Source: Schmidtea polychroa
Lineage: Eukaryota
DNA: 64,000 bases
NCBI GenBank assembly: GCA_044892525.1
Contig: CM097888.1
Location: 28,520,001 to 28,584,000 of the forward strand
Direction: 5' to 3'
In this document: positions 38,572-64,000 of the stretch, in pieces
Layout: every line of letters begins with the position of its first letter
Numbering within the stretch: the first letter of the stretch is position 1
The notes under the pieces: generated by a model
What the model was told of the DNA's origin: nothing
The model's database searches: none
The model's input: only the letters and a program-made list of their open reading frames with translations
Program-made: the position numbers and the translations under genes

Positions 38572-39563
38572 TGTGACGGAAAGCAGAGCGCAGCAATTAG
38601 TAATCCGTAAACAGCATGCATTTTTGTCGAAAGTATACAACGCGAGAGAGCTATAACACCGAATCCTGCAAGTAGCTTGGACGTGCCAAGCTATCACCTA
38701 TTATCCAGTGGTAATTCAATGGAGGCCACCCCAGCACCTCCAATTGCAATACTCCCCAGCAACCGCAGTACATGTAAGAAAAGTGGCTACATCTACTGCA
38801 AACAGAAACCACTATACGAAGAACTACAGACTGCGACGATAGTGAGCAAAAGCACGGTGGCTACAAAATTTTAATTCTAACCCACTTCCTCATATTTTTG
38901 TACTTACATTAGAAATGTAATCTTCTCATTTTTTGCTCAATTAATCTAACTAAATTTGGACAGGCTCCCCCTTTTATAGTTCAGTCAATTATGTATTGTA
39001 ATGCTAATTTTAATTGTATAAATAATGATAATAAGACTTTATAGCAATTTGTAATGGACCAATTATATTACTATTTCCTGAGCCTTTAACTATTAATTCA
39101 TGAACTTCATACTAGTCTCAATGTTCTATGTGTAAAGTTAAGTCTAAAGAGATTATTCGCTCGTTTCTCTCGGCCTACTAGACGTCTGAAAAACGAACCC
39201 AAAATCACTTTCACTAAATGTAATTAATTAAATTGTTCGTTGCACCGGCATACTAGACTCGATACAGCGAATCCTCAGTTTTGTGTAACGCCCTAGATCT
39301 AATTTACTACCTATTATATAGAGTTGGCTGCAGGCCAGAAAAAGGAAGATGTAGGGTTGGATGGGATCTCGTTCATCTAAAATAAAAGTAGCAATAAACG
39401 AATATCCTAATCAAACTTATATCACAATAATTTATGAGTAATAATAAAAACAAATATATTAAAACCTTTTTGTTAGTTAACTTGTTTGGCAGCCATTTTT
39501 ATGAATTGTTCTTGTTACCTGTCTATTTTTATTGAAAATTTTATTCCTAATGTTGGGGTTACA
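38572..39563 (-). repeat. Candidate 3' LTR (alternative start at 40956)
   Basis: Minus strand starts TGTAAC (39563) and ends GTCACA (38572) and contains TATAAAAGGGG (38978-38968). No second copy in the window to confirm it. Confidence 0.4.
38968..38978 (-). promoter_or_regulatory. TATA-box-like motif in the candidate LTR
   Basis: Minus strand TATAAAAGGGG; ATTAAA about 100 nt downstream (38875-38870). Confidence 0.4.
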
Positions 39564-40087
39564 CCTCGGCTGACCACTCTACCATGTTGACGGGTCTAAG
39601 GGTTGATTGTCCATCTCGAATAAAAGGTGCCACCGATTTGTCAACCTGGAGTGAAACCCCACATAACTTTCTTCCAACATAGTGCCCGTGAATCACTTCA
39701 CGTTGGTACTGCACTATGCAGGCGAGACGCCAGCAAGCAGGTGAGCTTCTGCCTTAAAACTACTCCTTGCTGAGGCCTCGACTTCCCATTCACGACTGCC
39801 GTTAGAAGGGCTTACGTCCATTTCCTTACACAACCACTTATCAGGATTCGCTGAATACAAATTGGGAATTTCTCACTAGATCTGGCGGGTTCTCTACTCA
39901 ACCCACTTAATTAAAGTCTAATTATTCATGAACGAAAACGTGTAAGACAACAAGATTTATTAATTTCAACGTTATGACACAAGGATTCAGCTGTACACTT
40001 TACTAATGTTTGTCGAAAGAAGAGAAAACATCATAATCAACATAGATCGGATCCTTGTTCTTCATCTTGACCGCCACTGGGATTTTA

Positions 40088-40837
40088 TTATTTCTCCCAT
40101 TCAGTGTCGGCGAATAATTCGTCGAGGTTGAAAAACTCGGAAGCGTTCTCTTCCCACATTACGCCAGCGGCTGATATGATTCGCGCTGAGGGTCCCGTTG
40201 TTAGGTCGATGGACACGTGAGAGTTGCCACCGTTGGTTGAGTCCTCTATTGATGGGATGTTTGGCTTGGTAGTGGCGCGTTCGCGCTGTCTCTTCTTGCG
40301 CTCTGCACGAGAGAGTTGTTTTCGCTTGGGTTTGCTTGAAGATGCCACTTGCAGAAGGGTGACTGATACGGATGGACTAGCAGTGGGGGGCTTACTGGTA
40401 CCCGTGATGACAACATCTGGTCGCTTGGGGGACAATTCGGTTTTGACGCAGTCTCGGCACGGTCTCTTGAACGGTGGAGATGGATTCGAGGAAAGGTTGT
40501 GATGAGGCGGAAAGATGTCATCGGCCTCTCGGATGGGAATCTGCACAATTTTTCGGGTCGTAGCCGCCTGCACGTAAACCTTATGCAGTGCTTCGGATTG
40601 TTCTCTGATTAGACTTCTTTGGGCACGGCTCTCAGATATTAGCGCGTCCCGGCAATGCTCGCTACGATCGAGCTTCTTTTGGATCTCCTTCATCCGAGCG
40701 GGACTAAACCATGTCCCTTCCAGCTCGTCGATTTTTCGTTTATATCGACCGATCTGGGCTTGAAGGTCTTTAATCACTGCATTTTTATCTGAGCAGGAGA
40801 AGCAGGGACGTAGAGCTGATTTGTTGTTTGATAACAT
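40088..40837 (-). CDS. 249-aa accessory ORF: CxxC, coiled coil, basic NLS-like stretch, acidic-aromatic C-terminus
   Basis: PCFSC, PCRDC, KPKRKQLSRAERKKRQRER, EFFNLDELFADTEWEK. Strong polypyrimidine acceptor ttttcttctttAG just upstream; AATAAA ~130 nt after the stop. Confidence 0.7.
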   Translation of the reverse strand: MLSNNKSALRPCFSCSDKNAVIKDLQAQIGRYKRKIDELEGTWFSPARMKEIQKKLDRSEHCRDALISESRAQRSLIREQSEALHKVYVQAATTRKIVQIPIREADDIFPPHHNLSSNPSPPFKRPCRDCVKTELSPKRPDVVITGTSKPPTASPSVSVTLLQVASSSKPKRKQLSRAERKKRQRERATTKPNIPSIEDSTNGGNSHVSIDLTTGPSARIISAAGVMWEENASEFFNLDELFADTEWEK

Positions 40838-43800
40838 AATAGATGGCTAAAGAAGAAAACTATGATGACTATATCTAAAAATTTCGGATCAGATATACGT
40901 TTTATTCGCTATTGGATACTTAGTGCTGGAAGAAAACAAGACGAGTCGATGAAACAGGATCCCTCCCTTCTCCCTCGATTACTAATATTTTACGTATCCT
41001 TTACAAAAAATTATTCCTCAACGCCCTGATTGCTTCCCTGACGAATGCAAATTATTTGTAAAAATTTTAATTTTCGTCTATCGCGTTCGAGTTGGATTTC
41101 TATCTATCGCACATAAAGGCAATTTACGGATTTGTTCATGCCGGAGTGAATAAACCTATTTCATTACAAATACACTATACTACACTTCGTTTAAATTTCG
41201 CTGATTATTTGTTGTTATTCTAATGCAAAATAAGGTTATTGGACCAAATGCAACTAGTAAAAAACTTGCACCCCTACCTCAAGTAGCGGAATAAGTAACA
41301 ACTCGTAATTTCGTATAAACTATACGTCACTATTTCATGATTACCCCTTATCCATACCATACGGTGATATCGTCGTAGAAATGTAGCATCGTAAAAATAT
41401 TGTAATTACATAATAATTTGTTATCGGATTTAGTTTTCTATTGCGATACGTAGTTTACATGGAATATGAGAAATTTAAATACAATATTACTAGCTATTTT
41501 ATAACCCAAAAATTCCTGTAGATGCTTTGGTTAATTTAAATTTGGCTCGAAGGCTACTACTATTATTTGTAACATCTAATTAGAATTACGATAAACCTCT
41601 ACAACCCTTAGGTAAAACTTCCTATGGTTTAGTTATAAAGTTTGGTTTGAATTTTCGGTTATTAATTAAAATACCCCTTCAACAATTTCGATTTTTATTT
41701 AGAATATTTAATTTAAGCAAAATTATCTTTAATGAGTGCACTTTAGAGAGTCTCTTATCTTAGTAGTCGGTTACTGGTTATTTGGCTTATCTTTTTAGTG
41801 GTACGAATGACCTTTATCAGTAGTGAAATTTAAGAGTCAGTCATCTGGAAGTCACATCTCATGTCAGCATTATCTAATAGGACCACTGATTACTACTCAC
41901 ACACTAAGAATCCTAGAGAGGGTGACACATGGCGGCATTCCCTGCGGTGAGAGGCATTCGGAATGATTCTGCTGTTTCTCATGCATATTTCTGACCGGAT
42001 GACGCTACTCATAGTTATGTTAGCAGTATGTCTGTATGTATGGGTGCCTATTCGATGGAAATTTTATCTGTAACTATCAACCGTACTGAGCGAACTGCAA
42101 ATGTTACATCGCGTGTCGATTCCCATCTGAGCTTATGATGTTGGATTTATTTACTACGACTCGTAATTTCCTCAATATTGGATGCTTTTGAACGATGGAA
42201 GATCTCTACGAACCAGCCAACTAGACTCTATGAAGCATATTTCAGTAGTGGATATTTCGACGCGACAGCATGAAAATTATTCAATGGGTATTACCAGATT
42301 TTGTTAATATATGTGATTGATTACAGTATTATTGTGGTTTTATGTTTTACTTTTCCTTTATTGTAAATTCCTCCTCATATGCTAAGATTTGGATGTCGCA
42401 TCTGAAAGAGATGACCTAAATTAGATTTACTTTTTCAAAAATCTACCGAATGCAATTTCAACTTCTCGATATGTTAGAAAAACCAGCGATGGATGTTTAA
42501 TGGTATTTTCCCCCACATGGTAAGTTCGGATTTATAGACAGAAGTGGCATGAATGTCTTATAAGACGACTCTGGACAATACAGAGTTAATAGGAGAACTC
42601 CCTCAGTCGCTGTGAAGCACATATCCTATTTTCGAAAATTTCATAAGGTTTCCTTTCGGTCTATATTTCGGTACTCTGACAGATTTTAAGTCCTTCAGCA
42701 ATTGGACCCGTGAAGAAGCCTTCACATTTCGGCCCAATCTAGCTGCGTGATTGAAATACTCCATGTCCACCGGCTGAGCTCCCGAAGGCACCTCATACCA
42801 TGACATGGAGTATCTCAACTCCACGTTACTCGTTAATATTAGAAATCATAAAACTATCACTTCAAAATAAATATCCATAAAAATTATGTAAGAGTTCACC
42901 TGTTACCAATAAATACTTTTAAACATTTAAATTATTTACTTTATCAAAATCGTTATTCAGGATCAAATGAAAAGAGAGTCTGTTTAAATTTAAAAGTTTA
43001 ATTGCTCATTAAATATACACCTTTACTATTAACTTCGAAAAACAATATCATAAATAAAAATCCCTTACTATGGAATTAGGCTGAATCGGAAAATTAACGT
43101 TAGTCGTTCCAAATTAGTCTGATGATGGTTCGTCGAATGTCGATTGCTGTGACTGATTTCGAATTGCTGTGAAGTTTTTCGAATTAACTGTTGCTCTACT
43201 TGTATTGCTGATCCTTGAAATAAGTCTCCGTGAGTTGTAGATGTCTATGAAATGCTCGGGGTTAACAGTAAATTTAATGTTTTTGGTAGTTGTATATATA
43301 TCAAATTCTTATTTGTGCGGACCAATCAGAGTTGAGTACCGCTTATTTCTATTAATTTAATATAATTTTCTTGTTTTTAGGTTGTTTTCTCCTTATTTTC
43401 TTTATTTTTAATATGTTTTTCTATTTATTTCCTTAATTTCCTTATTATTTCTTGAATTCCTCTTTATTTATTTGTCAACTTGTTCTATTTTAATCTTTTC
43501 TTAATTTTATTTTTTGTTTTAATTCTTATGTCTTAATTATTATTTTCCTTATACCTTATTCTATTTTATTTCTGATTTTATTTATTTTATTTTTATTTTT
43601 CTTAATGTTCTACTTCCCTACTTTCTTATTTTTCAACGATTAAATTTTCGACTCAGCCCAACAAATCACTCGGGGACCCATCAAAATTGCGTCCCGCAAT
43701 TGCATAATTAACTTAATTCATTCATTCAAAAAAAAATATAACACGAACACGAAAATTATACAACAATGATAAAATTTTTATTGTAAGATCAAGGTCAAAG

Positions 43801-43888: not shown

Positions 43889-44557
43889 TTATGAACTGTT
43901 AACCATTGATGCTTCTGCTGGCGGCTGTTGGTTGGTTTGGGTATTGATGTTGAGATAGGTCTGACTATTAGATTTCGGCTGGATTGGTTGATTACTCGGG
44001 GTTCGAGGTCGGAATGGGGATGGGTTAAGATTTGTCAGGGGCACTTCTTGAGGATTTTGGTTCGAGGTTACTCTTATTGATGTCGAGACTCTACATCTAT
44101 TTCGAACTTCGTAAATTTTCATGAATATTGGTAGACATAGGAGGAGGGTTTCTGCGATCACCACATATATGAGATAATGGGTGTCATTGATTTCGGGAGG
44201 TATTTTTGGCTTTTCTACCAGATTTCCAAAATTCTCTTGTTGCATTTGTTGTTCCAACTGGTCGAATTGTTGAATTTGTTCGAGGATTTGTTTGTTTATC
44301 ATTTTACAAATGGGATTCTTTTTACACATTGTTTGGATGTTGTTGATGTGTGATCGGGTTGATTGAAGGGTTTGGATGATATGGGTTTTTACGGTCATCG
44401 GGTATGTGCATTGACTGGATTCTTGTTTAGGTTCTTGATTTTGATTTCGGTAATCTCGTACGATTTTCGGTTGGGCGTCTATTTGTTTGCTCTCCATCAG
44501 AATCATCAATACCATCATTGTTATCATTATCTCGCCTCGCATGATACTATTATACAT
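43889..44557 (-). CDS. Type I membrane protein-like accessory ORF (222 aa; likely start 44542)
   Basis: Signal-like MITMMVLMILMESKQIDA, Q-rich helical ectodomain with 3 Cys, TM YLIYVVIAETLLLCLPIFM, P/Q/N-rich tail. Confidence 0.75.
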   Translation of the reverse strand: MYNSIMRGEIMITMMVLMILMESKQIDAQPKIVRDYRNQNQEPKQESSQCTYPMTVKTHIIQTLQSTRSHINNIQTMCKKNPICKMINKQILEQIQQFDQLEQQMQQENFGNLVEKPKIPPEINDTHYLIYVVIAETLLLCLPIFMKIYEVRNRCRVSTSIRVTSNQNPQEVPLTNLNPSPFRPRTPSNQPIQPKSNSQTYLNINTQTNQQPPAEASMVNSS

Positions 44558-44597
44558 TCATTATGTTTATTTACAATTGGTTTTAATGACCCTTAAT

Positions 44598-45350
44598 TTA
44601 ATGGTTCTGATTTGGATTATTTTCGCCGATTCTCATCAAGGTGGACTCTGCTTTAATTACCCTGTGTCTTAACTCGGGCAGCATTTCCAATTGTCGGTCT
44701 TTTTCACGGGCTTCTCTCTTTAGATGTCTAATTTCCTTTTCCAAGCGTCTAATTTCTTCCCTTTTCTTTTCAAGGTTTCTTTTTAGCTCGATTTGTAGGA
44801 GATCTTGTTCGTTTTCTTGCAGGTAATTTTGTTGTTGATGTTTTCTTTCTATTTCTCTATATTTGCGGACCCACTTCCTCATTTCTTTACTTTCCCGTTG
44901 GTTTTCTTCTAGTTGTCGTTTTAATTTATTTATAGCTGTTTGGCGCTCCTTCGCCTCAGTTTTCCAGTAGTCTTGGATTACCTCCTTTGCTTTGAAGCTT
45001 GCCCTCTCTTTCCATAGTTCTTCCGCTATCTTTTCCCAGTTTTTCCCTCGCTTCCTTTGTTCGTGTAGCCATTCATTTTCCTCTTCCGTTTCTCTTTTTA
45101 TTTCCCCCAACGCTTCGCACTCTTTCTTTAACACCTTTATCATTTTCCGGTCCTCCAGGTATTTGTTTATTAATCTCCCGTTTTCGTATTTCTCTTCCCG
45201 TAACTCGGCCTTTAGCGTTTGTGTTTCTGTTGTTTCTGCCTCAATCTCTCCCTCTTCTACGTCGCTCATAATTTCTATCATTTCCTCGATTTTCATATCT
45301 ATAATATGTACAGTTAATGGTGCGCTATAGTGCGACTTATACGTATACAT
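44598..45350 (-). CDS. Coiled-coil accessory ORF (250 aa; likely start 45296)
   Basis: Continuous E/K/R-rich heptads; co-oriented with the element. Confidence 0.75.
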   Translation of the reverse strand: MYTYKSHYSAPLTVHIIDMKIEEMIEIMSDVEEGEIEAETTETQTLKAELREEKYENGRLINKYLEDRKMIKVLKKECEALGEIKRETEEENEWLHEQRKRGKNWEKIAEELWKERASFKAKEVIQDYWKTEAKERQTAINKLKRQLEENQRESKEMRKWVRKYREIERKHQQQNYLQENEQDLLQIELKRNLEKKREEIRRLEKEIRHLKREAREKDRQLEMLPELRHRVIKAESTLMRIGENNPNQNH

Positions 45351-45464: not shown

Positions 45465-46520
45465 TCATACGAAGGTTTCCTCCTGGCCTACATAACCTTC
45501 ATCACTATCGACCGCGGAATGTAACTGTATCGCAATAGGGTCGTATGGTAGGTAATATTGGGGAATTTGAGCTCTCAATTCACTAACTTCGTCTCTTAGA
45601 GCTCGAGTGATATTCAATTCCTCGTCGAGCAGATAGGTGAGATACCTTGTCTCTTCATCTTTCGCCTCTATCTGTTTGTCTAGGGCCTTGATTTTCTCGT
45701 CGCCCTTCCATTTTTCAATTTCTATTTCTAAGTTTTTAATATTTTCGGTGTACATTTTCCTTTCGTTTTCTAATTTTCTGTTTTTTCCCGCTAGGACCAT
45801 GTTTCTTTGTTCCAGCGATCCTTGTAATCCATTAAGGTCTCTTTTCATCTCTTCTACCTGATTTACTAATTCCACAACCCGTCCCGCTTGTTGGGTTATC
45901 ATCTCTTCCATTGCGGCATTCTCGTGCTCTCTTATGTCGCACTTCATTGCCAAATGTCGCTCAAACTCCATAGCCTTTGTTTGCCAGGTTTGGCTTCGGG
46001 CGGCGACCTTTCTCAACCTTTTTAATTCTTCCTTTATTATTAAATTCTCCTCCCATTTACCTTGTTCGCTTTCATATCCGAGTCTCATGGGCAATTCTTT
46101 CATCTCTTTTTTCATTTCTCTGTTTTGTCTTTTCCATTTTCTCGCTTCTGCCACTAAGTGCATCATTTTCCTGTCTTCTATTTGTTTTTCCGCTTCGCGC
46201 TTGGTGTTCTCATCGGTAAGTCTCTTTCTCGCTTCCTGCACCAGCTGCTTTAAGTAGTGGCTGTGTGCTTCTTGGCGGGTATTTTCTAGTGCCGCCCATT
46301 TTGATGCTCTTTTGCATGCTTCTGCTTCCGCTCTTAAGTTGTGTATTAACCATTGGTATTGACTATTCTCATCTTCTCTAGTTTCCTCGATGTGATTTCG
46401 GGTGAGATTAGTTAGTTGGAACATTACTTTGTTCCATTTTTTGTTATGTTCTCGGGGAATTTGTGTCTTGTTGACATTGGTTGGGGCTATCGCAGTTTCG
46501 GTTATTTTCTCTTGTGTCAT
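45465..46520 (-). CDS. Coiled-coil accessory ORF (351 aa)
   Basis: Long E/K/R/L heptad region and an acidic C-terminus (DSDEGYVG). Confidence 0.8.
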   Translation of the reverse strand: MTQEKITETAIAPTNVNKTQIPREHNKKWNKVMFQLTNLTRNHIEETREDENSQYQWLIHNLRAEAEACKRASKWAALENTRQEAHSHYLKQLVQEARKRLTDENTKREAEKQIEDRKMMHLVAEARKWKRQNREMKKEMKELPMRLGYESEQGKWEENLIIKEELKRLRKVAARSQTWQTKAMEFERHLAMKCDIREHENAAMEEMITQQAGRVVELVNQVEEMKRDLNGLQGSLEQRNMVLAGKNRKLENERKMYTENIKNLEIEIEKWKGDEKIKALDKQIEAKDEETRYLTYLLDEELNITRALRDEVSELRAQIPQYYLPYDPIAIQLHSAVDSDEGYVGQEETFV

Positions 46521-46713
46521 CTCTAAATCATAGACATCGATTAATCTTTTTATTATGAAAAAGGGATTTATTCGTTATTTACTGTTTCTTGGGAAATTTT
46601 CGCATCATTTTTGGGTTTTCGTATTTAGGGTTTTCATACTATTATTATATAATATTTTATTGGTTATATACACCGATATATACAGATTATTATATACAAC
46701 ATTATTCGATTGG

Positions 46714-48102
46714 TTACTCCGTTCTACCCTTCTCCTCTTTCCTCACGGTCATCTTGATATATATGGTATCATTTCTCGCCATATCCTCTACTCTTTGTTG
46801 TGAGATGAACGTAGGTGCTCCTGTTGCTGATCCTTCTTCGTTGAGGGGCCTCTGGTAAGCTATTTGATTCCCCGTTGTTTTGAAGCTTTGCTCATGTATA
46901 CTTTGGTTGTTCATCAGAGTAATATCGATTTTTGCCTGGAACGGCCATTCTAATATTTCGTCGTATTCTCCTTTACATAACAGAAAGAAAATCGAAAAGT
47001 GCGTATCTAATCCGGTTCCGTCCCCGTTGGGATATATCTTCATTTTCATTTTGTACCCATTTTTCCAAGAATGGAATGCAGGACTTGTTATTCTTGTCTC
47101 TTCTCCGGTTTTTGCTTTTCGTATTCTTTCTTTTACTCCCGTTATTTTCCATATGTAGGGTGCTGTTGGGGTTATCTCATTTAGATTTATTTCCCGTATT
47201 TTCTGATGTAGCTCCTTGGCCTGATTATTACTGATTTCTGTTCGGTTTATTTGCATCTTTATGTTTGCTCGGGCTTCTTCGAACGCTTCCCTTTCTTCTA
47301 GTAGTTCTTTGACTAACACCTTCAACGATGTTATCTCTATCTCCATTTGTTTTACTTTCTCTTCGCTTTCTTGTAACGCAGTCGACCACATTTCTGCGTG
47401 AGTTGAAGCATTTTCTACTAAATGATGTGGTAACTCACCTCGGTGTAGTAGTTTCTGACAACCCCATCTACCTAGTACACATGTCATTCTTTTCTTTTCG
47501 CATTCCCTTAGATGCTGTGCCACCTTCATTATTTCCCCTTGGTTACATCCGTTTGGGCATTCCCCACTGAACTCTGCACATACTCTCTCCTCTTGGACAT
47601 TGTGATGTTTGAGGGTGAGATTTATCCACGTATCTATTTCTCCACAGTGTTCACATCTTTCCAATCTCTCTTCACACTGCCTTTGATGCTCTTTTTCTTC
47701 GCTTGCTCGAATGGTTTTATGGCACCTTTCACACTGGCCAATTCTGTACATACATTCTCCCATATGTTGTACTACTTTCCATATTACTCCTTTCCATTCG
47801 CATGGGGCATTTTTGCATCCCAGGTTGGTGTTTAACATATCTTTCACTGCGGCTTTATCCTCGTTAGTGTCTTCTAAACTCGATATTAGTGTCTCTTTAC
47901 ACACCGGGCACCTCTGTGGTCTATTCTTTATTGCTTCACTGATACATTCTTTACATACTCTGCATCCACATTGCGTTTGGTGAGGTTCCTTTAACAACTT
48001 TTCACATATTCCGCACATAACATGTTTGTGTATTCTGATCGTCGTAGATTTTCGGACTTGCTCGACAATCTCTCTGAACTCTTCTCTTTGTCGTTTATCC
48101 AT
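46714..48102 (-). CDS. TRAF: TRAF-family protein (RING - TRAF zinc fingers - coiled coil - MATH), 462 aa, intronless
   Basis: RING CGICEKLLKEPHQTQCGCRVCKECI..CPVC, several CxxC..H..C fingers, MATH YIWKITG..SPAFHSWKNGYKMKMKIYPNGDG..HFSIFFLLCKGEYDEILEWPF..DTIYIKMTV. Confidence 0.93.
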   Translation of the reverse strand: MDKRQREEFREIVEQVRKSTTIRIHKHVMCGICEKLLKEPHQTQCGCRVCKECISEAIKNRPQRCPVCKETLISSLEDTNEDKAAVKDMLNTNLGCKNAPCEWKGVIWKVVQHMGECMYRIGQCERCHKTIRASEEKEHQRQCEERLERCEHCGEIDTWINLTLKHHNVQEERVCAEFSGECPNGCNQGEIMKVAQHLRECEKKRMTCVLGRWGCQKLLHRGELPHHLVENASTHAEMWSTALQESEEKVKQMEIEITSLKVLVKELLEEREAFEEARANIKMQINRTEISNNQAKELHQKIREINLNEITPTAPYIWKITGVKERIRKAKTGEETRITSPAFHSWKNGYKMKMKIYPNGDGTGLDTHFSIFFLLCKGEYDEILEWPFQAKIDITLMNNQSIHEQSFKTTGNQIAYQRPLNEEGSATGAPTFISQQRVEDMARNDTIYIKMTVRKEEKGRTE

Positions 48103-48187
48103 TCTATAATTATATGTACAAATAGTTCTTATCGATACAGGTTCGATATTTTATTTACAATTATTTACATTTTGAGCTAGGTTTGGT

Positions 48188-48571
48188 TTAGGGTTCGGAA
48201 GAGTCGGCTTCGTGTCCGCTCTCCTCTCTATTCATTAGCCATTCCGACCAGTCTTCTATTTCTGTCTGTTCTGCTTCCTCCATCATTCGGTCTATTTCAA
48301 TTTCCTGTCGACGGCTATATTGGGTTATCCTCTCTATCTCTCTTTGCATTTGTTCGATTTTTAACCTCTGGTCTTCAATTATCTTCAAATAACTAAATCC
48401 TCTGTTCATACTCTCGATCAGGTTTCTGTGCATCGTCAGTCCTTGTTCTTGCAAATTGGACACTAATTGTGCTAATACGGCACATTGTTGCTTCCATAAT
48501 TCTTCAGTTACTGTATTGTGGTTCATTTCGTTATTTCCTTGATCCATTCCTAATTTATATACACTTTTCAA
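48188..48571 (-). CDS. Small coiled-coil accessory ORF (likely ATG at 48547, ~119 aa)
   Basis: ORF between the polyprotein and TRAF; heptads and an acidic tail. Confidence 0.65.
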   Translation of the reverse strand: MKSVYKLGMDQGNNEMNHNTVTEELWKQQCAVLAQLVSNLQEQGLTMHRNLIESMNRGFSYLKIIEDQRLKIEQMQREIERITQYSRRQEIEIDRMMEEAEQTEIEDWSEWLMNREESGHEADSSEP

Positions 48572-48707: not shown

Positions 48708-51700
48708 CTATATACGTGAGTTTGGAGGGCGCTGAACGTTCCAGGCCTCCACCCACTGTCCTTGTTTGATATCACTTGGTCGTTTCACTCGATGTTGGAA
48801 GTTTCTGATTCGGGTCATTTCTAGTTCTCCGCGATGTCGTTTATCCTTAATTATTTTTATTGTTCCCCCCGTTATGATTAGGAATGCCCCTGTTATTATT
48901 ATCCCACTGATCCACATCATCTGCTTCACGCTTATACTCTCTGGTTTTTCCTTGTTTGTTAGTGTTGATATCGCTTCTGTACTTTTCTCGTTTCTTCTTT
49001 TGCCATTTCCTTTCATCATTTCTCGTATTCTTGCTATTTCCTCGTTCATACCCTCCTTTGCCATCTTTTGTATTTTTTCCATCTCTTCCTCCGAAACATA
49101 GTTGTCCTGAGCTTCCTCGCCGGTTTTCTTGTGCTTTCCTCCTTCGTCCTTTTCGTCGTGGTTTTTCCTTTTCTTTCCTCTTTTCCCCGGGTATCGTCGG
49201 CATTCTCTTTTTGATTCGTTTCTCCAGATACAAACCGTATATTCCTTCGGGGGCTGCTGCTGCGTCACATATTGATGGCATCTCTCACCCGGTCCTAATC
49301 TTGAAATACAGACTTTGTGCTCTTTTCTTGGTTGGAGCTGCGTTATTACTACTTCGCCACCTTTTCCTAGGTGTACCTCTTTTCCTTTGACGTTCGTTAT
49401 TCTCTTCCCGTCTCGATTTCGGTATGCTTCTTGTATTCTTACTTCTGTTATTGGTTCTGTGGCCTCATTTATCAGTACTAGTTTCTGATACGCTCTAGAC
49501 ATGCATCTTCCTAGTATGCACCTTTCCTTTAAGTCCCATTCTTCCTTTAAATCCCACTGCTGCTCTTGTGCTTGCTTTTTCTTTTCTTGCTTTAGTTCAT
49601 CCTCTTTGCTATCTTGATTCTCCGCTTCTTTGGTTTCTTTTATCGTTCTCGTCCCTCCCTGAGCTGTTACTAACTCTATCATGGTAAGCATAATTATCAT
49701 TAATATCATATTTGTCTCTATTTCTTTGTTAGTGAAAGGTAGGCATACCCTCTGTTTTCCATTATTCGATTTTTCCTCCTCTTTGGTCTTAGTTCCCGGG
49801 CTGTTTCCCTCTCTTTTCGTATCCGAATCCTTGTTTTCCGGTTTACCCTCCTCCGGTTCTCTTTTCTCTTTATCCTCCTTTCGGCCTTTTCCGTTATTGT
49901 CATCGTGTTTATCTCCCCCGCTGTCGTTTAAAATGTCGTCCTCGACATTTATATCGTTCAATAATCTGCGATATGCTGTTAGCACTCTGTTTCTTGCTAA
50001 TTTTGCTTCGAATTCAAACTCCTTTCTGCCCGTTGCGGCATGCCTCTTTCTATTCCATTCTTTAACTAACTCTCTCAATTGCATACGACGATGTTTCCCA
50101 ATTCGTTGTTGCTCGTTCTGATTTTGCGTGAATTTTAGGTCTTCTCTATTTAATACTACTAAAATAATTTTAGGCGTCCCCCCCTTAGTTAGGGTATTCT
50201 TTACCATCGCATTTTCTCCGTTTTCGTAGAATTCGTTTACATTTATCGCATATTTATTATTTTGTGGTACTCTCCAGGTTAATAATAATTTCATTGCTTC
50301 TAGATTTTTCCGTACCGTATTCCATTGAAACTGAGATGTGTTTTTGCACATATTTTCAACTTCTTCTTTTGTCGCATTTTTGCAAATAAATCTGATCATT
50401 TCTAAGTTTGGCTGTATGGTTGCCCAGTCCAAGGTGGAATTTCCTTCATTGGACCTTTCGTCTAGTTTCGATCCTGATTGATGTAGGATGTGGAGTGTTT
50501 TTGGGTGTATTTTCGTTATAGCTGCATACATCATGGCGGTTTCACCTTGTTCATTTTTCGTGTTGGTTTCCTCGCCCATCTCTCCAAGGATTCTCACGAT
50601 CGTTATTGCTCTATTTTCTTTCGCTGCTAGTATTGCTTGTTGTAGGGGTGTTCTGGAATCCTTCGTTACCATCGTAAATGCTCGAGGCAAGAAGGTTTTG
50701 ATTTTCCCGATATCTAAACCCGTGGTTTGATCTCTTGCGTATGTGTGTACGGCTTTTATTATTTTGGACAATATTATTTCGTCTGGCAGCTCTAGCATTT
50801 CCTCAAAGAACACTTCTTTTGCTTTGCGTATTATTGCCTCTTGATCTATACTCATTGATTTGGTTTCGATGACGTTGTTTGTGACCGTTTGGTTCGTTGT
50901 TGACTTTGATTCCCTGGATTTCTCATACCTTATTTTCGTTTTCTTTCCGTTTGGATTATTGATTCGTTCCTCTGCTGTAAGTATTTGGATAATATCCAGG
51001 TAATTCTCGCGGATGTTATTCATTGTGTCCATCATATATAACACACTTACCGTTTCCCAATATTTATTTCGTACTTGGTTAGTAAATTGGAATAGGGATT
51101 TTTCGAATGTGTCGATTCGCCCTTTTGCTAACTGTTCGTCCTTATGATTTGTGAATTTTATTCCTCGTTCTAGTAATTGATTCGGAATTTCGAATAAATG
51201 ATGTCCTTTCATAGCTTCTCTCATCAGCGTGTTCTCTCCTCTCGTGAACGCTTCGTTTACGTTGATCATATAATCGTTTTGAATTGGATTTCTCCATGTA
51301 ATTAATATTCCGGTAATTGTCGTCAGTTTTTCTTTGATCGCTGTTAACAATCCATCATACATGTTTCCGACTTCCCGATTGTCCTCATATGATAGTAGTT
51401 CCATCAATGACGTGAACGCCTCGGTACTTCTCCCTTCGATAGCATGGTGTAGAGCGTTTTTCCGCTCGTGGTCTTGTGTAGTTATTTTCGATCCGGTATC
51501 GAGTAATGCGGTTATAATGTCTTTTGTTTTGCCTCTGTTTGCGGCTATCATTAATGGTGTGTAACCTTGGTTGTTTGTTTGTTCTGTTGATCGCTTGCAG
51601 TCGTGAAATGCTTCTATTGTTTCTAGTATTTGCTCGTTGTTACCTACTTTCATGAGTTTGTGTAATGGCGTGTCTCCGTAATGATCTGTTATTGTAAATA

Positions 51701-54700
51701 ATATTGGCCATTGGCTTTTGACTACTCGCAATAATGGGTGTGTCCTTTCTCTATTTGCATAGTTCTCGATCATCGTCAATAATCCTCCTAATATTTCGAA
51801 ATCTAATCGATCTTTTGCCCATCCAGGTATTCTAATTTTTACCTCTTTTACAATCTTTTCCGCTTCTGATGGTTGGATACCTAATCGTCCAGTGATCGGT
51901 TCTGCGAGTTGTTGCATCATGTTCATTCGGTAGGTTTGCGAACGTGTGGTTAATGTACGGCCTTCTGGTTGACTAGTGGCTGTTTTTGGAATTGATTTGC
52001 ATCGTGCCACGTTTACGTATATTGGTCTGGTAAAGGGGTTATTTACCAATTTCACTCTTACATTAGTTTCGCCTACGAATAAGATCTCATATGGTCCTTT
52101 TCCGTTGCGTTGTAACTTTTTTGTGGTTCCTGGAATTAATTCCGGGGTTTCTATCATTACCCAATCACCTGTTTGGAACGTATGTTGCTTCACGTTTTTC
52201 TTTCGATCGTGTAAATCTTTATAACTTTCCTGGTAGAACTTGATATTTAATCCCGCAGTTTCCCAAATTTCTTGCATTCTTTCCTTGAATTTCGTAACAT
52301 AATCATCGATCTCCATATACTGCGATATCGGTGGTTGGTATTCCAGGTCCATTGGCATATTACATTCTCTTCCGTACATTAATTTGAATGGGCTCATTTT
52401 CGTTGATGCGTGAATCGACATTCTGTACGCCATAAGACATAGGTTTATATATTCGTCCCAATCTCGTTGGTGACGGTCAACGTAGTTTGATAACATTTGT
52501 ATAAGTGTTCCATTAAATCTTTCCGTCATCCCATTGGTTTGAGGGTGGTATGGAGATGTTCTTAGTTTTGCTATTTTGAAGTAATTTGTTACTTCGCTCA
52601 TTATCTCACTCATAAAATTAGTTCCCTGATCGGTTAAGATTTGTTTTGGTGTTCCATATCGGCAACATATTTCTTCTACCAAAATTTTTGCGATTGTTTT
52701 AGCTTTTTGGTCTGGCATCGCGAATGCTTCTGGAAATTTCGTAAGAAAGTCTGTGATCACTAGAATGTAAACGTTTCCTTTATCTGACTCTGGTAGTGGA
52801 CCAACTACGTCCATGGATATCATTGTCATTGGTTCTATTGGTACTGGCATTGGCGTTAAAGGTGCTTTCCATTTCGATCCAGTATTCTTCCTGGTTGCAC
52901 AAGTTAGACAATTTTTTACCCATTCGGTTACATCTTCAGTTAACGTAGGCCAAAAATATTTCTGTTTCATTCTTGCTAACGTCTTTTTCGATGACATATG
53001 TCCTCCCAATCTCCCATCGTGATATTGCGTTAGTAACTCTTTTCGTCGGTTTTCCGGTATACACATTAATCGTTTTTCCCCATCCATTATCAGCAACCAA
53101 TCTTTCTCTATAATATATCGGTGTCGGTGTTTATCCATATGTTCTTTTAATTTTTGGTCTTTCGCATATACATCTGTCTTTCCGGTTTTTACATAATCGA
53201 TAATTTGTTTTAATTCCGCGTCCTCTTGTTGGTCCTTTCGTAATTGACAGAAATCCAAATCTTCCGCTACTATCAAGCATATGCGTTGCATTTCTGAATC
53301 CACCAAATCTGGGAAAATAAATCTTGACATACAATCGGCGTTGGCATTTGCTCTTCCCGCTTTGAATTTTATAAATGGGGAGTATTCTTGCAATTGCATG
53401 GCCCATCGCATCAGTCTACTGGACGCTTCTTTATGTTGCCCTAACCACACTAATGGTTGATGATCTGTGGTTATGCATATCTCATGTCCCCATAGTAAAT
53501 ATCGGAAGTGTTTGATAGCTTGTATTATAGCCAATGCTTCTCGTTCTGTTACCGAATAGTTCTTTTCGTGCTTTTTGAATGTTCGACTGTAATACCCGAT
53601 TACTCTCTCTTTTCCCTCATCGTCTAATTGTCCCAGAATCGCGCCTGCCGCGTACCCGCTTGCATCCGTTGCCAATAGAAATGGCTTCTTAAAATCTGGG
53701 TGTACGAGGATAGGTGCTTCGATTAGTTTATCTCTCAGCGTTTCGAACGCCTGTTGTTGTTCTTTTTCCCAAATGAACGAAATATCCTTCTTTACTAATT
53801 CCTGGATTGGTTTTGCAATTCCTGCATAATTTTTGATAAATTTGCGATAGTATCCGCATAATCCTAGAAATTCCTGAACTTGGGTGACAGTTTTCGGTGC
53901 TGGACATGTTTTTATTTTCTCAATGTTTCTTGGATCTGGCTCCTTTCCTTTAGCTGACACTATGTGTCCTAAAAACGTGACTTTTTCCTTTGCCCAATCG
54001 CATTTTGATGGTTTGAGTTTGAGTTTCCACTGTCTTAATCTAATAAATACGTTTCGGATATCTTCCAGATGTTGTTCAAATGTCGCTGAATAGATTAGTA
54101 AATCATCAATATATACCATACATTGTTTGATTCCATGGGTGACAAAGTTCATACACCGTTGAAATGATGCTGGTGCGTTGGTCAGTCCAAATGGCATTTT
54201 TCTGAATTGATATAGATCTCGTCCCAACGTGAAAGCTGTTTTCTCTTTGTCCTCATCTTTGACTTTAATCTGCCAGTATCCACTTTTTAGATCTAAAGAA
54301 GTAAAATATGCTGCCCCTTGCAACATCAATAACATCTCATTGATGTCCGGCAATGGATAGGTATCTCTCTTGGTCACTGCGTTTAACTTCCGATAATCGA
54401 TACAGAATCGTTGGGTGCCATCTTTCTTTTTCACCATGACCACTGGGAATTGCCAAGGTGAGCAACTTGGTTCGATTACTTTTGCGTCCAGCATCTTTTG
54501 TACTTCTGCTTCGGCTATTTCTTTTTGCATTTCTGCTAGCTTGTATGGTCTTAATGCAATTGGAGTTTCATCTATGAGGGGTATTGCATGTAGGGTAACA
54601 TCGCCTGTACCCAAGTCTAAGTCTGAGATGGCGAATATATCTTTATATTCTACCAACAATCGGTGTAATTTTTTCTTTTCATCATTCGTCAACAACATAC

Positions 54701-57700
54701 TATCTATTGTCCATAATTCATCATCTTTGATCATCTCGTTGGTCACTTTCGGTAATTCTATGTCCATCATTGGGGTCAATCTTCCCAATTTTTCGTTCTC
54801 ATAAATGATTTTGTCTTCCTCTTCGAAATTCGTGATGTTGAGCGGTATCACTCCTTCTTGGTTTATTGTGATTATTTCTCTTGCGAGTGGTAATTCTCGT
54901 CGCTTTTCGAATGACTGGCTTGGTTCAAAGATAACTTCTCCTTCCATACCCGTATCCACTTTTATCTGACAAATCATCTGCGATTTTGCTGGTACTATTA
55001 TTTTTTCTGGACATCTGATGACTGCATTCATTTTGCATATTCTACCGGTTTTGTCTTTTAAACACATGGTTGTTAAGTCAATTACGACTTCTTTTAACAA
55101 TTCTGGCATCAAATCCGTTCCGATTATGCATGGTACGCTAAGTTTTGGTATTACTGCCAAATACGTTTCAATTTCGTTGTCCTGGTATCTCAATGTAGTC
55201 CACCATCTTCCGACCACGTCCACTGTTTCTTTACTACATGCTATGATGTGAATTGTTGTTGATTCGATATCCTTCCAGTGTTTACTGGGGATTTGATTAA
55301 TCGCTATCGCTGATACATTAGCTCCTGTGTCTATCATAGCATTGGTTTCTTGACCATTGATTTGGATCATGACTGTCACTGCTGGACCTCCAGGTAGACT
55401 CATTGCTGCGATTGTTCTTACGTCATCTGCTTGATCTACACTTTTGGTACGTCGTGTTGGCATATAATGCATACCGGGTTGACTCGGTAATTGCGGATAC
55501 ATATTTTGTGTCATGGTCAAAGCTGCTTGTGGTCCCACGATATCCGGTGGTATATAGCTTCCATTGGCGATCCAGGTGTTTGTCTTTTCCTTTTCCCAAT
55601 ATGGTGCCGTTTCCATTGGTTTTTCGTTTGGGTTTCTGTTTGGATAAAGACATTTATCGTTCCCGTTATCATCGTCGTCACTATCGCTGTTAGATGATTG
55701 GCTTCTAAATCGGTCCAAGAATTTTGGCTTATTCTTTTTCAATTGTCGTCTTGTTGCTTCATCGTACATTACTTTCCGGAATCGTCTGCCTACTTCCTCG
55801 TCGGTTCCTTTAATCTTTGTTAATATTTTAATCAATCGCTTTATCCGATGAATGTCTTTTGAGTGACCATGTAATACCATGGTTTTAGCTAAAAATGGTA
55901 AGAAGCCTACTATCATTTTCCAGTTAACTTTCTTTTCCCGCTTGTATATATCAAAACAAGCTAACATTTGTGTTAGTATTACTCTGACTATCTGAATTAT
56001 GAGTATGATCCCTAATATCCCGGCCATCATTTGTCCAAAAACTAAGAATCTTCCCCACATTGCTTTCATCATGTTTGACGTAGCTTGTTGAAAATGGTCT
56101 GGCGATAATAGCAGCTCGTAATTCGGGCCTGATTGATAATTTGTTCCCCCCGTTATTGTAACCATATTTGACAAAATGGATTCTCGTCTGGCTGGAAAGA
56201 GTACGTTAAGTCGTGCTGTTTCTAGGTCTTCTGGGGAATACATACCACCGTTTGACACGTCTATAGGTTTGAAATCCAGCTCTGTGGCGAGTTCTATTAA
56301 TCCAAATTTCTTGGGTTCCTCGGATATGGTTTTTCCCGGTAACATCATCCATTTCCCATCGGGTCTTTCATACAAAGGTCCGTATGCATTAGAACAGTTA
56401 AAGAGATTTGGGTAGAAACCCACTGGATTCATAATTCTAGTGACTGGTTGGACGAATCGATTTTGTCCTTTATAACGGATTTCTAATTCATTTGCACATC
56501 TCTTTTCGGGTAGTATGGATTTTTCTGGCATTCGTGCATACGTCTTGGTACACTGGTATGTGTACATCACTTCTCCTACCATTCTACCAAAGTGTCCATC
56601 TGGTAATGGGAGTGATGGCATCGTGTTATCTGGGTGCGTTATCGCAATAGCTAGCTTTGTTTTCAATATTTCTTTATTCAATGAACAATCGTTTTGTATC
56701 AGATCGTAATATACTTTTTGCAAGGTCGTTTGTCCGCGATGAAATAGAAAATCCATTTTATTATTTGCATATAAGTATAGTTTTACGTCCTCCGTTGCTA
56801 TCTTTCCCACTGCTCTATCGATTATTTGTCTCGACATATAGATGCCTGCGTAATTGGTTTTATATACTATACTGTCACATTTGGTGGTTTCTTTCTCTTT
56901 GATAAATCTCATACCTAGATCTGGATCGTCTGTGATTAATGCTGTTGGTGTCTTCTGCGTTGAAAGTCTCTTTTCTCTGGGAGATGGTGGCATTGGTTTT
57001 CCATTTCGCATTCTCACTCTGTCGTTTCCATCCTCGTCGTTCTCGTTCTCATATATTTCTCCTGTTACTTCATTGAACAAAGCACTTTTTAACAGTTGGA
57101 GTCGGCATTTTTGGGTATTAGCTTCATAGATTATAGTTGATACTCCTGTCCTGCATACGTTTTCTGTAGCTTTACACGCTGGGTTGGTCTTCATTTGGTA
57201 ATTATTTGCGTCAAATTGCGCTTCGTATTCTTTTAATTCGACCGTGTAAGACTCGATCACTACAACTCCCGATATTACCTCGCCTCGGATCGTATACGTC
57301 CCCCCGTTACATGACCCATCTGATGATTTTACTTTTCCGGATACGTAAACACTTTCGGTTTTAATCATTCCAGTTTGTCCGTGAATTGTCACTCCGTTAT
57401 GCATTTTTAGCGCTCCGGTTCTAAATAGCTCTTTACAATCCTCTCGTTGTATTGATACGATTTCTTTATCCAGACCAGGTAGTATAAGAGTCGAATACGA
57501 ATATTGTCCACAGTAATATGCGAGTACCTTTTTTGATACTACGCATTCCCTTGCTTGCGTTCTGATGAAATCTGATTCTTGATATACATGGTAAGTAACT
57601 TTTGTTCTCACGATGTCCAATTTGTTGGGTGAGGCTTGTCTGCATTCTTCTATGTCTCTCAATGAGTATTTATCCCTCATTATCATATTATCACAATCGT

Positions 57701-60700
57701 AGATGGTGAAACCTGTTGCTCCACTTGTGCACAACATCCATATCATCATAGTCATCATTAACGAATTTATTGATGCTTTTCTGCTTGCGGGATCTTTCAT
57801 CGGTAGTTCCCATTCTAGTTCATTTAACAGTTTTTTCAATCTAACTTGCATCGACCTTTCTTGCTCATTTTTCCGTGGCGCTTGTATCAGTCTTTTCCAT
57901 CCTCCGGCACGAATAATATGTGGTTCAATAGTATTCTCTATGATTGAAACGGTCATTTCCACATGATTTGCAAACTGTTTATTTGGTATTTTCCTCGCAG
58001 CTAGTCCCATCAAATTATACATCAAATAAGTGATTACCACTAGGTGATGTTCGTCATCATTTGCATTTGTCGTGAGCTGCTCAATCACTCTCTTTGTTTC
58101 GTCCCAATCCGTTTTGGTGGTTTTCGTTTTCTCTTTGATTAACTTTGGGATTATCCCCGAAATGGTGTGCCATAATTGTCTAGCTTCCGTACTGGCTACT
58201 TTCCGTTGCCACAAACGTCGAAGTTGTGGGTTTGTTATTATTAACATATCTTTTAACAATTCTCGTATCCATTTTTCTCCTCTTTCGATCGTTGGTTGGG
58301 CTTCCTTTAGATCCCATACTATTTTATCCAATTTTTCTAATCGAACTTGCCCTTGTTCTTGCTTTAATTGTTCTTTGGTTTTAAACTCAGACTTTTCTCC
58401 TTGTTTCTTAGGTCTTCCTTTTGCCCGTTTTTCCATCATCGTTCCGGCTTCTCTGGTATTTTCGTAATTCGGATTTCTTTCGTTATCCGTTCTGGGTAAT
58501 GAGCTATCGTTATTTCTTAGCCACTCATTCCATTCATCTATTATTTTATCGGTTTGACCTTCTGGTGTTACTTTCGTTGGTTCTCTTTGCTTCTGGAATT
58601 GTTCATCCGTTTCGGTTTCCGTAGTATTGTCGATGATTTCTTTGATGTTTAGTTTCGTGGGTTGTTGATAACTCGTTGATGGCTGGTTGTTAGTCCACAT
58701 TTCGGCTCCTGTCGGCCATCTCACTAATAGCGGTGATCTTTCTCCTGATTCATCGTCACTATCTTCCAGGATTATCTCTTCAACTTCTTCAGTTTCATTA
58801 GATTTACTTGGTGCTTTGTTCGGACTTGGAGTACTCAAGCTGCCTTTTGTTGGTTTAATAATTTTACTTTTCCTTTTTAACGGTTTCCCCAACGTTTCTG
58901 CCATTGTTAACACATTTGTCTCTTCCAATCTCATGGGTGTTATTCCGACGTCTGCATTATCGTCTAGTGATTTTCCGAATAGTTGCAGATGGAATGGAGT
59001 TTCATATGCTAATTTCTTTTTTAATTCTCTAATTTTTGTTGTTGGATGCACCTCTAGTTCCTCGATGCTCTTGTCCGGATACTTGATTCGGATGTGATAC
59101 CTCTCCTGGGTGTCTTGTGCCCATTCCTGATTTCTCCATTTTCGAATAATTTGTTCTAGCTGTTCTGGATACCATTCATTATATTGCCGGTATTCCTCTA
59201 TTGCCTTTGCCATTCCTCTCAGATTGTGGATATTCTCTGATGTTTTTAAGATGATATTAGCCAACGCTACTACCTGGCGTTTTTGATTTTTCGCTCCCAT
59301 TGCTAAAATATCGCCTAATTGTTTATATCTTTCTTTCTCTTCTCGTTCTCTTGCTTCCGTCGCTTCCTCGCCGTCCATATCAGCATATTCACGTTCCTTT
59401 TTCCTCATTGCATGAATATGTCTCGCTTCATTTTCGCTTTCTGATGTGACATCCGTCTCGCTTTCGTCATCTGATGTCTGTCCCCTTGCTTCCTCTTCAT
59501 ATTCTGGGGGTTCCTCTTCTTCTTCCTCCGATTCACTTTCTGTCTCACCAATGTCTGTTTCTACGAAGATTCCTTTCCGGATTTCCCATTCCTTATTTTC
59601 TGCATTCCACACTCTTTCCCATGGGGTTCGTCTGCAGGATCTGGTATTTAATTTCGTGATTTTTCCTTGTAGCTCTTTTTCTTTTAACCATTGTTGGTGG
59701 ATTTCAATTATTTCTGTAGATTTTTGATACAACGTTTTCATCCGGTCTCGTATTTCTTTTTGATATGTTACATCTCTTGTTCGGAATTCATCCATTGGTA
59801 CTATCCTGATTATCTGATGATTGTCCCACATACCCATTTCGCTTAACGAGGTGTCGTCCTCCGCTCGTAATATTATCTTATCGTACATCATGACTACATC
59901 ATCCACCATACCATCACTACTTTCGCTACGTACCTTTTCCGTTATCTCTTGGTTTATTTTTGATACCAAGTCATCCACTGTACTCTGATTGCTCATTTTT
60001 ATTCGTCGTTTTTCTTCGTTCGGTAACCATATGGTTATTTCCAACCTCTGTGGCTGGGTTTCTTTTAACCTTCCATATTTGTGGATCAAATTTATGGTTC
60101 TCCAATCACTCATTCGGAGCATTTCTGTATCTCGCAACCGGCTCATTAGTTCGTACATGGCTGGGGCTCGTCTGGTGATGAGTAAATCCCAGTTGTCTTC
60201 TACTTGTTCTTGAATTTGTTTGATCAGCTTATCCAGGTTTCGTCTCAGAGTACATTGTTTTATTTGTTCTAATTTCAATTTGATATTAAAATCATATTCT
60301 GCCTTGGCATCTTTAGCCCAATCGTAAATGTTGGCTGGTTGTTTTTCTTTATGCAACTTCAGTATTTGCGTTTCTCCTGGCCATATTAGTGCATCTACTA
60401 AGTGCATATCTGGTTTGATCTGGTCTCCTTGGTATTGATACAGGTATTCTTTCTTTCTCGAACTTCCCAAATGTTCTCGTATCCAATCGAAAAGTTCGTC
60501 GGTGACTGTATTTTTTATCCACATTCTTTCAAGTCCTCTACTCGTTCCAATTTTTATTACATACCGCGTGGTATCGGCCTGCTTCATTTTTTCCATATAA
60601 TTTTTTATAATTGATTTTTCCTCGTTTGGTATTAGATCTTTCTCGTTTCTTTCCAATTTCATCACTTTTTGCACGAATCGCCTGAATGGTATTACGTCGA

Positions 60701-62561: not shown

Positions 62562-63870
62562 GATTGGTGTTCTAGGTTCGTCTGTTTCTTTTAAATTGTC
62601 TAACGATGTGACTAAACTTTGGGCTGATAATTCTTCGGTTGACGTTGCTAAACTATTAGTGATATCGGACAGACTTTCTCTACTTCGAGATCGACTAGGG
62701 GTATATCCGAGATTTTCTTGGTCAAATATGGGTACTTGATTGGTTCTTCTGGATCCTTGTGATATTCCTCTTTGATGTTTAATGGATCGTCCTCTTTTGA
62801 GTTGTTGTAATTCGTCTCCTGAAAATAATACGTCTCCTGGCTTACTAGAAGATCTAAGATTGGGTTTATCCGTGATTCCTTTCTTACGCTTCTTGGTAAT
62901 TAGCGGCTATTGAATCGGACGCGTTCGGTTCTGATTGTGTTTCCTTCGATAAATATTCTGTATGAATCTGCTACTGAGATCCTGAGGAGATTTACTAATC
63001 CTTGGCAGATGGCTGCTAATACTTCTTCCGTTCTGGAGTCTTCCGGTTGCTGTGTCTCTCGGTGCGGGTTCTGAATGGATTTATCCTTGGTTGATTGTCG
63101 ATTTTCTTCGAATTCCTTTTGTGCAGGTTCTGGATTGTCTTGGTTGGCTGGATTGGCTTGATATCTAAAATGAAAAAATGATCTCGTGTTGCATTTGCTT
63201 ACACGACTTCATCATTCTTTCTACAACATTCAAAAACAGACACCTTTTAGGTTTCTGTTTGTGCTTCCTTTATCTTTTGTGAAATCCTTTCTGCGGGTTA
63301 TAATATCCCATCAGCCCGTATTTTCCGTCGATTTTAAATTATCTATATGGGGTAGTAACAATTATCTATAAAGTCGTAATAATTATCTATTCGTTATCAA
63401 TTATAGTAAAAATAGGTCGTTGTCGGTCTCTGCTTATTACCCCCCTTTCATTTTCCTAATCCTTTTGCGCTGTTGTCGCTATTTTACTTTTCATATTCAC
63501 TATTATTACGCTCGGTTCTACTCTGGAACCAATAAAATGCATTTTCCCGGTTTAACAAAAAAAAATATTCCGTAGAGTTTCTCTACTTCACTGGGATCCC
63601 TTTAATTAGTTAGTTACTTTCCTCTTTACTCATTATCATCATTTCATCTATTCTTTATTTTCTATTGTCTCTTTAATTCGTTTCCTTCTTCCCTTTCCTT
63701 TTTCATTATAATCTTATTTTCTTTTCCACGAGCTCGTTTATTTCCTCTCTAAACTCGAATTTTCAAAATTACATTCAATTTGTTCTAGCTAGCTTTAATA
63801 TTCCATATCAATAGTAATCTAAATATTATCTCATTGTAGCTTAACTGCTATCTCTCGCTTTTCTAGGCCT

Positions 63871-64000
63871 TTACGACTGGCTGGCACTATTCAACAGCTC
63901 AATCTTCTTCCTTCTGATCGGTTGGACTATTCAACAACTCGATCTTACGACTGGCTGGCACTATTCAACAGCTCAATCTTCCTCCTTCCTGATCGGTTGG
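63871..64000. repeat. 74-bp tandem repeat (at least 1.75 copies, truncated by the window end) with an internal subrepeat actattcaaca
   Basis: ttacgactggctggcactattcaacagctcaatctt at 63871 and 63945. Confidence 0.9.

Follow-up and report, generated by a model that had tools for sequence, protein, structure and literature searches.

A whole TRAF gene is carried as an accessory gene by a Burro-type giant gypsy element of Schmidtea polychroa

The Burro-type element and its TRAF gene

The window analysed here, a stretch of 64,000 nucleotides of the Schmidtea polychroa genome (contig CM097888.1, positions 28,520,001 to 28,584,000), held a Burro-type gypsy element, which was 30,278 bp long when the window was read together with the neighbouring stretches of the genome. 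Its 3' LTR was located at 39551..43663 (minus strand, 4,113 bp, TG...CA), and the identical 5' LTR of 4,113 bp was located beyond the window at G000:C4:28585716-28589828. The target-site duplication CTAA (4 bp, 39547..39550, plus strand) was repeated after the 5' LTR. From its identical LTRs the insertion is very young. The 5' leader contained a 74-bp tandem repeat (63871-64000 and on to G000:C4:28584283). An ORF of 249 aa was present inside the LTR (40088-40837), thus twice per element, with a weak match (E 8e-4) to the LTR ORF of a second element family of the same genome, called family B below.

The polyprotein was encoded by one open frame of 4,732 codons (48708..62906, minus strand, first Met at 62561), in which Pfam domains of gag, CCHC knuckles, a Monjiviricetes-type fusion protein, protease (PR), reverse transcriptase (RT), RNase H (RH), integrase (IN) and ankyrin repeats (Ank_2, E 2.5e-17) were recognized. 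In the Pfam order env stood in frame between gag and pol within the single polyprotein gag-env-PR-RT-RH-IN. No MATH domain was found by Pfam in the 4,732 codons, and the UBL and BCL2-like parts of the polyprotein were readings made by eye only.

Five shorter accessory ORFs were arranged on the same strand downstream of the polyprotein. An ORF of 119 aa (48188..48547) had no Pfam match and shared 30% identity with its syntenic counterpart in family B; the second was the TRAF gene (46714..48102). It was followed by a coiled-coil-like ORF of 351 aa (45465..46520), 32% identical to part of the syntenic family B ORF, by another coiled-coil-like ORF of up to 250 aa (44598..45350), in which a YAG precedes the second ATG (45296), and by an ORF of up to 222 aa (43889..44557) with a hydrophobic N-terminus, one predicted membrane segment and no Pfam match. 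All of them were read from the minus strand.

The host part of the window was A/T-rich. By eye, intron-bearing host exons adjoined the element at about 37660-37830 and from about 38387. A linker histone H1 gene, whose tail consists of 36-bp tandem repeats, was observed at 24560-25510, an intact-looking hAT/spin-type transposase frame of 650 codons at 12296-14248, and broken pieces of a Tigger/pogo-like transposase, read by eye, at about 7982-9447.

The TRAF gene encoded 462 aa without interruption from ATG to stop, in the order RING, five zinc fingers, coiled coil and MATH. The RING (about aa 29-68, 47899..48015) had eight cysteines and matched zf-C3HC4 (E 1.3e-4, 22.2 bits against a cut-off of 21). 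The five TRAF-type zinc fingers (aa 96-235, 47398..47817) were recognized from the Cys/His spacing (C96-C117, C124-C143, C150-C175, C182-C201 and C208-H235), and Pfam zf-TRAF gave no match at E 0.05. The coiled coil (TRAF-N, 47185..47397) was predicted as a continuous helix of aa 232-306, and the MATH or TRAF-C domain (about aa 316-453, 46741..47157), whose second half occurs as two divergent alleles among the copies, matched PF21355 with 96.5 bits against a cut-off of 27.4 (E 2e-27). All these features lie on the minus strand. In alignments with vertebrate proteins, aa 28-155 corresponded to the RING and zinc fingers of TRAF6 (E 3e-15), aa 22-141 to those of TRAF5 (E 3e-14) and aa 291-453 to TRAF2 (E 2e-28); the C-terminal part also aligned with TRAF1 and TRAF3, and the alignment with the TRAF3 chain began at aa 246. 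A single-sequence fold reached a pLDDT of only 45, and the AlphaFold model used here was made with a 10-row alignment of TRAFs from the same genome. It had a mean pLDDT of 79.8 and consisted of a 75-residue helix (232-306) followed by a beta-rich C-terminal domain, with TRAF1/2/3 as its best PDB matches (E about 1e-15). Pfam, alignments, spacing and model thus agreed with the initial annotation of a full-length TRAF, and with RING and zinc fingers, coiled coil and MATH all present the protein is a member of the TRAF family.

The same order of RING, zinc-finger array, coiled coil and MATH is found in vertebrate TRAF2, TRAF3 and TRAF5 (PDB 1ca9, 8zuk, 7l3l) and TRAF6 (5vo0), and the element MATH was nearest to vertebrate TRAF2/1/3, with about 31-36% identity over the TRAF domain; this is a likeness without assignment of orthology. 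The element RING differed from the vertebrate type, which has His at ligand 4 (CGHRFC): it reads CGCRVC with C47 at this ligand, and its eighth ligand is also C, in place of the D of TRAF5/6. The MATH groove was changed relative to vertebrate TRAFs as well. At the positions which we take to be the receptor contacts of TRAF2, K was found for R393, and Q, I and T at the serine triad, so the binding partners of the element TRAF may not be receptor tails.

Jurka 2007 and Grohme 2018 are said to have described Burro1 (GYPSM1) and Burro-2 to -4 as giant gypsy-like LTR elements of Schmidtea mediterranea. In the available part of PMC6431247, MATH_TRAF_C, BIR, ankyrin and BCL2-like motifs were given for Burro1 to -4, and meddling with apoptosis and ubiquitination was proposed. 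Going by the same part of that source, the window element resembled Burro1-4 in being >30 kb with LTRs and in its huge polyprotein with gag, three CCHC knuckles, in-frame env, PR-RT-RH-IN and ankyrin repeats; Burro-2 to -4 were also listed there with MATH_TRAF_C, a comparison made by description only. For Burro1 only a MATH_TRAF_C domain was named, inside the 4,873-aa ORF1, whereas the polyprotein of the window element had no MATH, a whole RING-zinc finger-coiled coil-MATH gene stood alone downstream of it, and no BIR ORF was present. The Burro-like element of Dugesia tigrina, as far as that text describes it, was similar in having an ORF1 without MATH and MATH_TRAF_C in a separate accessory ORF, but this ORF, for which only MATH_TRAF_C was described, was upstream and the TRAF of the window downstream of the polyprotein. 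By its length, LTRs, target-site duplication, polyprotein order and ankyrin plus MATH/TRAF cargo, the window element is a Burro-type giant gypsy element. Beyond the part of PMC6431247 consulted, no paper was found that describes an entire TRAF gene in an element of this kind, though Grohme 2018 and Jurka 2007 may already show the ORF. The TRAF cargo is a fuller form of the published MATH/TRAF cargo and not a new kind of system.

Copies, selection and a second element family

Presence of the TRAF gene in other copies of the element had been set beforehand as a test of its cargo status. In the 781-Mb genome, with the hits on four large contigs, the gene was matched at full length and 99-100% by all 40 DNA matches scored (the best 40 of 363 candidates), and the protein at full length and 95-100% by all 92 matches scored (the best 92 of 1997 candidates), 91 of them stop-free. 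At least 92 full-length copies therefore existed. A query with the LTR end gave 40 matches, in 18 pairs, one triple and one single; 39 of them bracketed 20 intervals, each about 26 kb long, and all 20 contained a TRAF match. In 21 diverged copies the ankyrin region was upstream in 21/21, and integrase was within the fetched stretch in 20/21. With its position inside identical LTRs and a target-site duplication in the window, the TRAF is a fixed accessory gene carried by the element, as had been proposed.

For the selection analysis 50 loci and the window were sampled, giving 42 distinct TRAF sequences; the copies were those with the highest scores, a choice biased towards intact copies of low dN, and the proportion found intact does not hold for the genome as a whole. 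Among shared variants there were 83 synonymous and 50 replacement changes (dN/dS 0.15), and singleton variants gave 0.29. The modules were about equally constrained (RING and zinc fingers 0.13, coiled coil 0.13, MATH 0.17), and elsewhere in the element dN/dS was 0.04 for RT-RNase H and 0.15 for the ankyrin region. The window TRAF compared with each of the 21 diverged copies gave 0.11-0.21. The 462-aa frame was whole in 49 of the 50 loci, and none of the 36 Cys/His of aa 1-240 varied across the 50 copies. Drift alone is ruled out, since there were lineages with about 40 synonymous and about 24 replacement changes where neutrality would give nearly four replacements per synonymous change. The TRAF gene is thus under purifying selection.

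That the gene might be a single-copy host locus with the element beside it only by coincidence, or might evolve neutrally as a passenger, had been named as what would overturn the proposal. Both were rejected on copy number, the 20/20 LTR brackets, the occurrence of a TRAF in a second element family and the dN/dS of 0.15; nothing was found in their favour, and their probability is negligible.

The A-rich codon style noted at first was also borne out. At fourfold sites the TRAF had A 0.49 and T 0.12, close to the polyprotein (A 0.52, T 0.12), whereas 12 host TRAF ORFs had A 0.32-0.46 and T 0.24-0.41. Since the TRAF composition is that of the polyprotein, the proposed long residence in the element was backed.

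A divergent allele of the second MATH half (aa 381-450, 46753-46962) occurred in about 16 of the 50 copies. In four of five copies examined this block differed at 16-17 synonymous and 10-13 replacement codons, which fits a recombined segment and not an excess of dN, and positive selection in the MATH groove was rejected. In two copies of the same family (L107, L109) the ankyrin region and the polyprotein tail were 80-83% identical to the window, and RT, integrase and TRAF 95-97%; these appear to be mosaic copies that arose by module exchange between subfamilies.

A search of the genome with the MATH profile (best 150 of 1551 candidates scored) revealed family B, which had a 4,791-codon polyprotein with a lone MATH inside and LTRs of about 4.7 kb, identical to near-identical. 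Its downstream TRAF ORF was 29% identical to the window TRAF and had the same position between homologous ORFs. The two families were 90% identical in RT-RNase H, 59% in env, 47% in gag and 25-32% in the accessory ORFs, and the 90% of RT-RNase H against the 29% of TRAF means that the accessory block evolves far faster or that modules were exchanged. Separate captures or module exchange between the families are possible on these sequences; one old capture would be the simplest explanation for both TRAFs, though it falls short of proof. In family B the TRAF ORF was directly followed by a BIR-RING (IAP-like) ORF (L044:7043-9783, at G000:C1 about 21,552,000-21,554,800). In mammals the TRAF-IAP pair is an anti-death module. 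Neither a BIR (IAP) ORF nor a MATH inside the polyprotein was found in the element family of the window. Family B is the Burro1-like one, because MATH inside ORF1 and BIR were present there and absent in the window family; judged from description, the latter is not Burro1/GYPSM1 itself.

Host TRAFs and the origin of the element gene

The lack of introns had been taken as a mark of retro-capture. It lost this value, since eight full-length host TRAFs (L013, L014, L015, L016, L018, two ORFs in L051, and L118) were also single ORFs. L013, the one checked for copy number, was single-copy. The element TRAF was 27-31% identical to seven of the full-length single-ORF host TRAFs. Cysteine in place of H (CGC type) was found in 30 of the 32 host TRAF RINGs read; L022, L030, L032 and L036 (no RING motif in the fetched flanks) and L024 (RING not recognisable) were left out of this count. 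Two canonical host TRAFs, in the regions of L017 and L055, had a CGH RING, and introns split the RING from the rest of the gene. The replacement of H by C pointed out in the initial annotation is therefore real but not specific to the element, and the decoy or rewired TRAF suggested from it lost its basis, the odd cysteine being the norm of the host lineage and all 36 Cys/His being invariant in 50/50 copies. The eight-cysteine RING appears to be a derived trait which ties the element TRAFs to the expanded lineage of the host. With the planarian expanded TRAF/MATH family (available parts of PMC6109357 and PMC7586133) the element TRAF shares the CGC RING type, going by the 30 of 32 host RINGs read here, and it differs from this family in being element-borne, multi-copy and of A-rich codon style.

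Searches of a large protein collection with the single protein and with the 10-row alignment returned no sequences, so the trees had no non-flatworm outgroup. In the full-length tree the two element TRAFs were sisters (93/93), a join of long branches of odd composition, and in the MATH trees the link between them had 88/76 in one and was open in the other. For the rooted tree 21 of 41 rows were kept, near-identical rows being dropped, with the two canonical host TRAFs as root. All other element and host rows formed one group (100/99), whose base had no resolved order, and the element rows tended to group together (66/72). Placement of the element TRAF with L013/L015 was rejected (AU p 0.0008) and that of both element TRAFs with L013-L016 was borderline (AU p 0.043); the AU test did not reject both with L051 (0.29) or with a two-exon host cluster (0.07). 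The element TRAF was not nested in this large cluster. Phylogeny thus placed the element TRAFs within the CGC-RING group and singled out no donor gene.

In the full-length and MATH trees host rows never nested among element rows, and on this account capture from the host is likelier than the reverse flow, in which the element lineage would be the source of the eight-cysteine, intron-poor TRAF expansion of the host. We consider the reverse flow very unlikely. The eight full-length single-ORF host genes of the CGC lineage, against the intron-split canonical CGH pair, suggest a retroposition at its base, and the branches of the element rows start at the base of the CGC group, where the order is not resolved; but these rows tend to cluster with one another, the host TRAF genes are of host-type composition, and L013, which is single-copy, had no DNA match to the element TRAFs among 40 scored hits. 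Copy number and host composition also spoke against L013 being an upstream ORF that belongs to another element. At the start of its frame, 134 bases (L013:2753-2886) matched a repeat dispersed in the genome (81-88% in 38 of the 40 hits scored), and the start of L013 may be repeat-derived. In a bolder form, which is a long shot, the Burro element would carry a spliced accessory operon of five to six genes, and its TRAF would be the founder, not the borrower, of the flatworm eight-cysteine-RING expansion. If so, the host would have domesticated an anti-death gene of the retroelement in the form of copies without introns, and these would then have radiated into the largest immune-adaptor family of the animal.

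Expression, proposed role and meaning

A candidate 3' splice acceptor of the TRAF gene was present at 48103..48132 (minus strand), with a YAG one base before the ATG, which was kept in 50/50 copies and could serve for splicing. A YAG 1-4 nt before an ATG was found in all five accessory ORFs (the first ATG in three, the second in two), against 97 of 547 internal ATGs, and the sites were in A/T-rich spacers (48103-48560, 46520-46560, 45296-45340 and 44542-44580). In family B a YAG was 0-3 nt before the first ATG in four of six downstream ORFs. Complex retroviruses make spliced accessory mRNAs, and the sites suggest that the accessory ORFs form an operon expressed from spliced or trans-spliced mRNAs. 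A separate mRNA is probable for the TRAF because its ORF is too far downstream for scanning on genomic RNA and the YAG is kept before its ATG. No joint at the candidate acceptors was found in contigs of four RNA runs, a kind of contig that cannot show starts, strand or level. Loose poly(T) ends were observed on diverged contigs of run X6 and were given no weight here.

Taken together, we think it fairly probable that the TRAF was captured long ago from an eight-cysteine-RING TRAF lineage, the flatworm's own, and that it is translated from its own spliced mRNA. The protein would trimerise and work as a ubiquitin-ligase adaptor with an intact RING, damping stress-kinase and cell-death signalling in the cells where the element is active. 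NF-kB, one of the targets suggested at first, is doubtful, since in S. mediterranea, according to the part of PMC13563047 at hand, a clear homologue of NF-kB was not found. Signalling through stress kinases or towards cell death is plausible, and TAK1/p38 death signalling would be a likelier target than NF-kB. According to the available portions of these sources, planarian TAK1/MKK/p38 controls apoptosis with traf2-1 as an inhibitor (PMC4993586), planarian TRAF knockdown leads to more cell death (PMC7586133), and BURRO1 RNA rises on loss of SMEDWI-2 (PMC8532177). With the BIR-RING ORF beside the TRAF in family B, and the BCL2-like and ankyrin cargo reported for Burro elements, damping of stress-kinase and death signals would be the best reading, which the planarian TAK1/p38 and TRAF data fit.

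A dominant-negative decoy, which would join host TRAF trimers or occupy their partners but would not itself be a ligase, is unlikely. It would be consistent with the conservation of coiled coil and MATH (dN/dS 0.13 and 0.17), with groove residues which, on the numbering we assume, differ from TRAF2, and with the lone MATH in the family B polyprotein, which could act solely as a binder. However, loss of the RING would be expected of a pure decoy, and here the RING and zinc fingers were as constrained as MATH (0.13) with every ligand invariant, and the odd cysteine was the norm in the host lineage (30/32). Because all modules are equally constrained, a working trimeric adaptor is likelier. Still less probable is a service to the element's own cycle, in which ubiquitin would direct how the Gag and envelope proteins of the element are sorted, processed or budded. 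In its favour are the fusion glycoprotein and membrane segments of the polyprotein and the ubiquitin-like repeats reported in Burro ORF1 in the part of PMC6431247 consulted, and the measured selection does not tell which function is being kept. Against this role, the companion cargo is a cell-death and signalling set (ankyrin here, BIR-RING in family B, and BCL2-like according to the same part of PMC6431247), and the tail of the last accessory ORF, predicted to be cytoplasmic, had no conspicuous TRAF-binding motif. With the motif patterns as we assume them, matches in the proteins of the element were at chance level and none was in this tail.

The domain label of a review has become a defined gene with measured selection in two element families. 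The meddling of Burro elements with apoptosis and ubiquitination, as proposed in the available part of PMC6431247, becomes testable gene by gene. Among the 150 best genomic MATH hits, about 94 matched element copies, as judged by eye, in profile span and frame length (five were fetched and confirmed). This bears on the planarian TRAF 'expansion', as counts of MATH domains from genome or transcriptome may mix host genes with element cargo.
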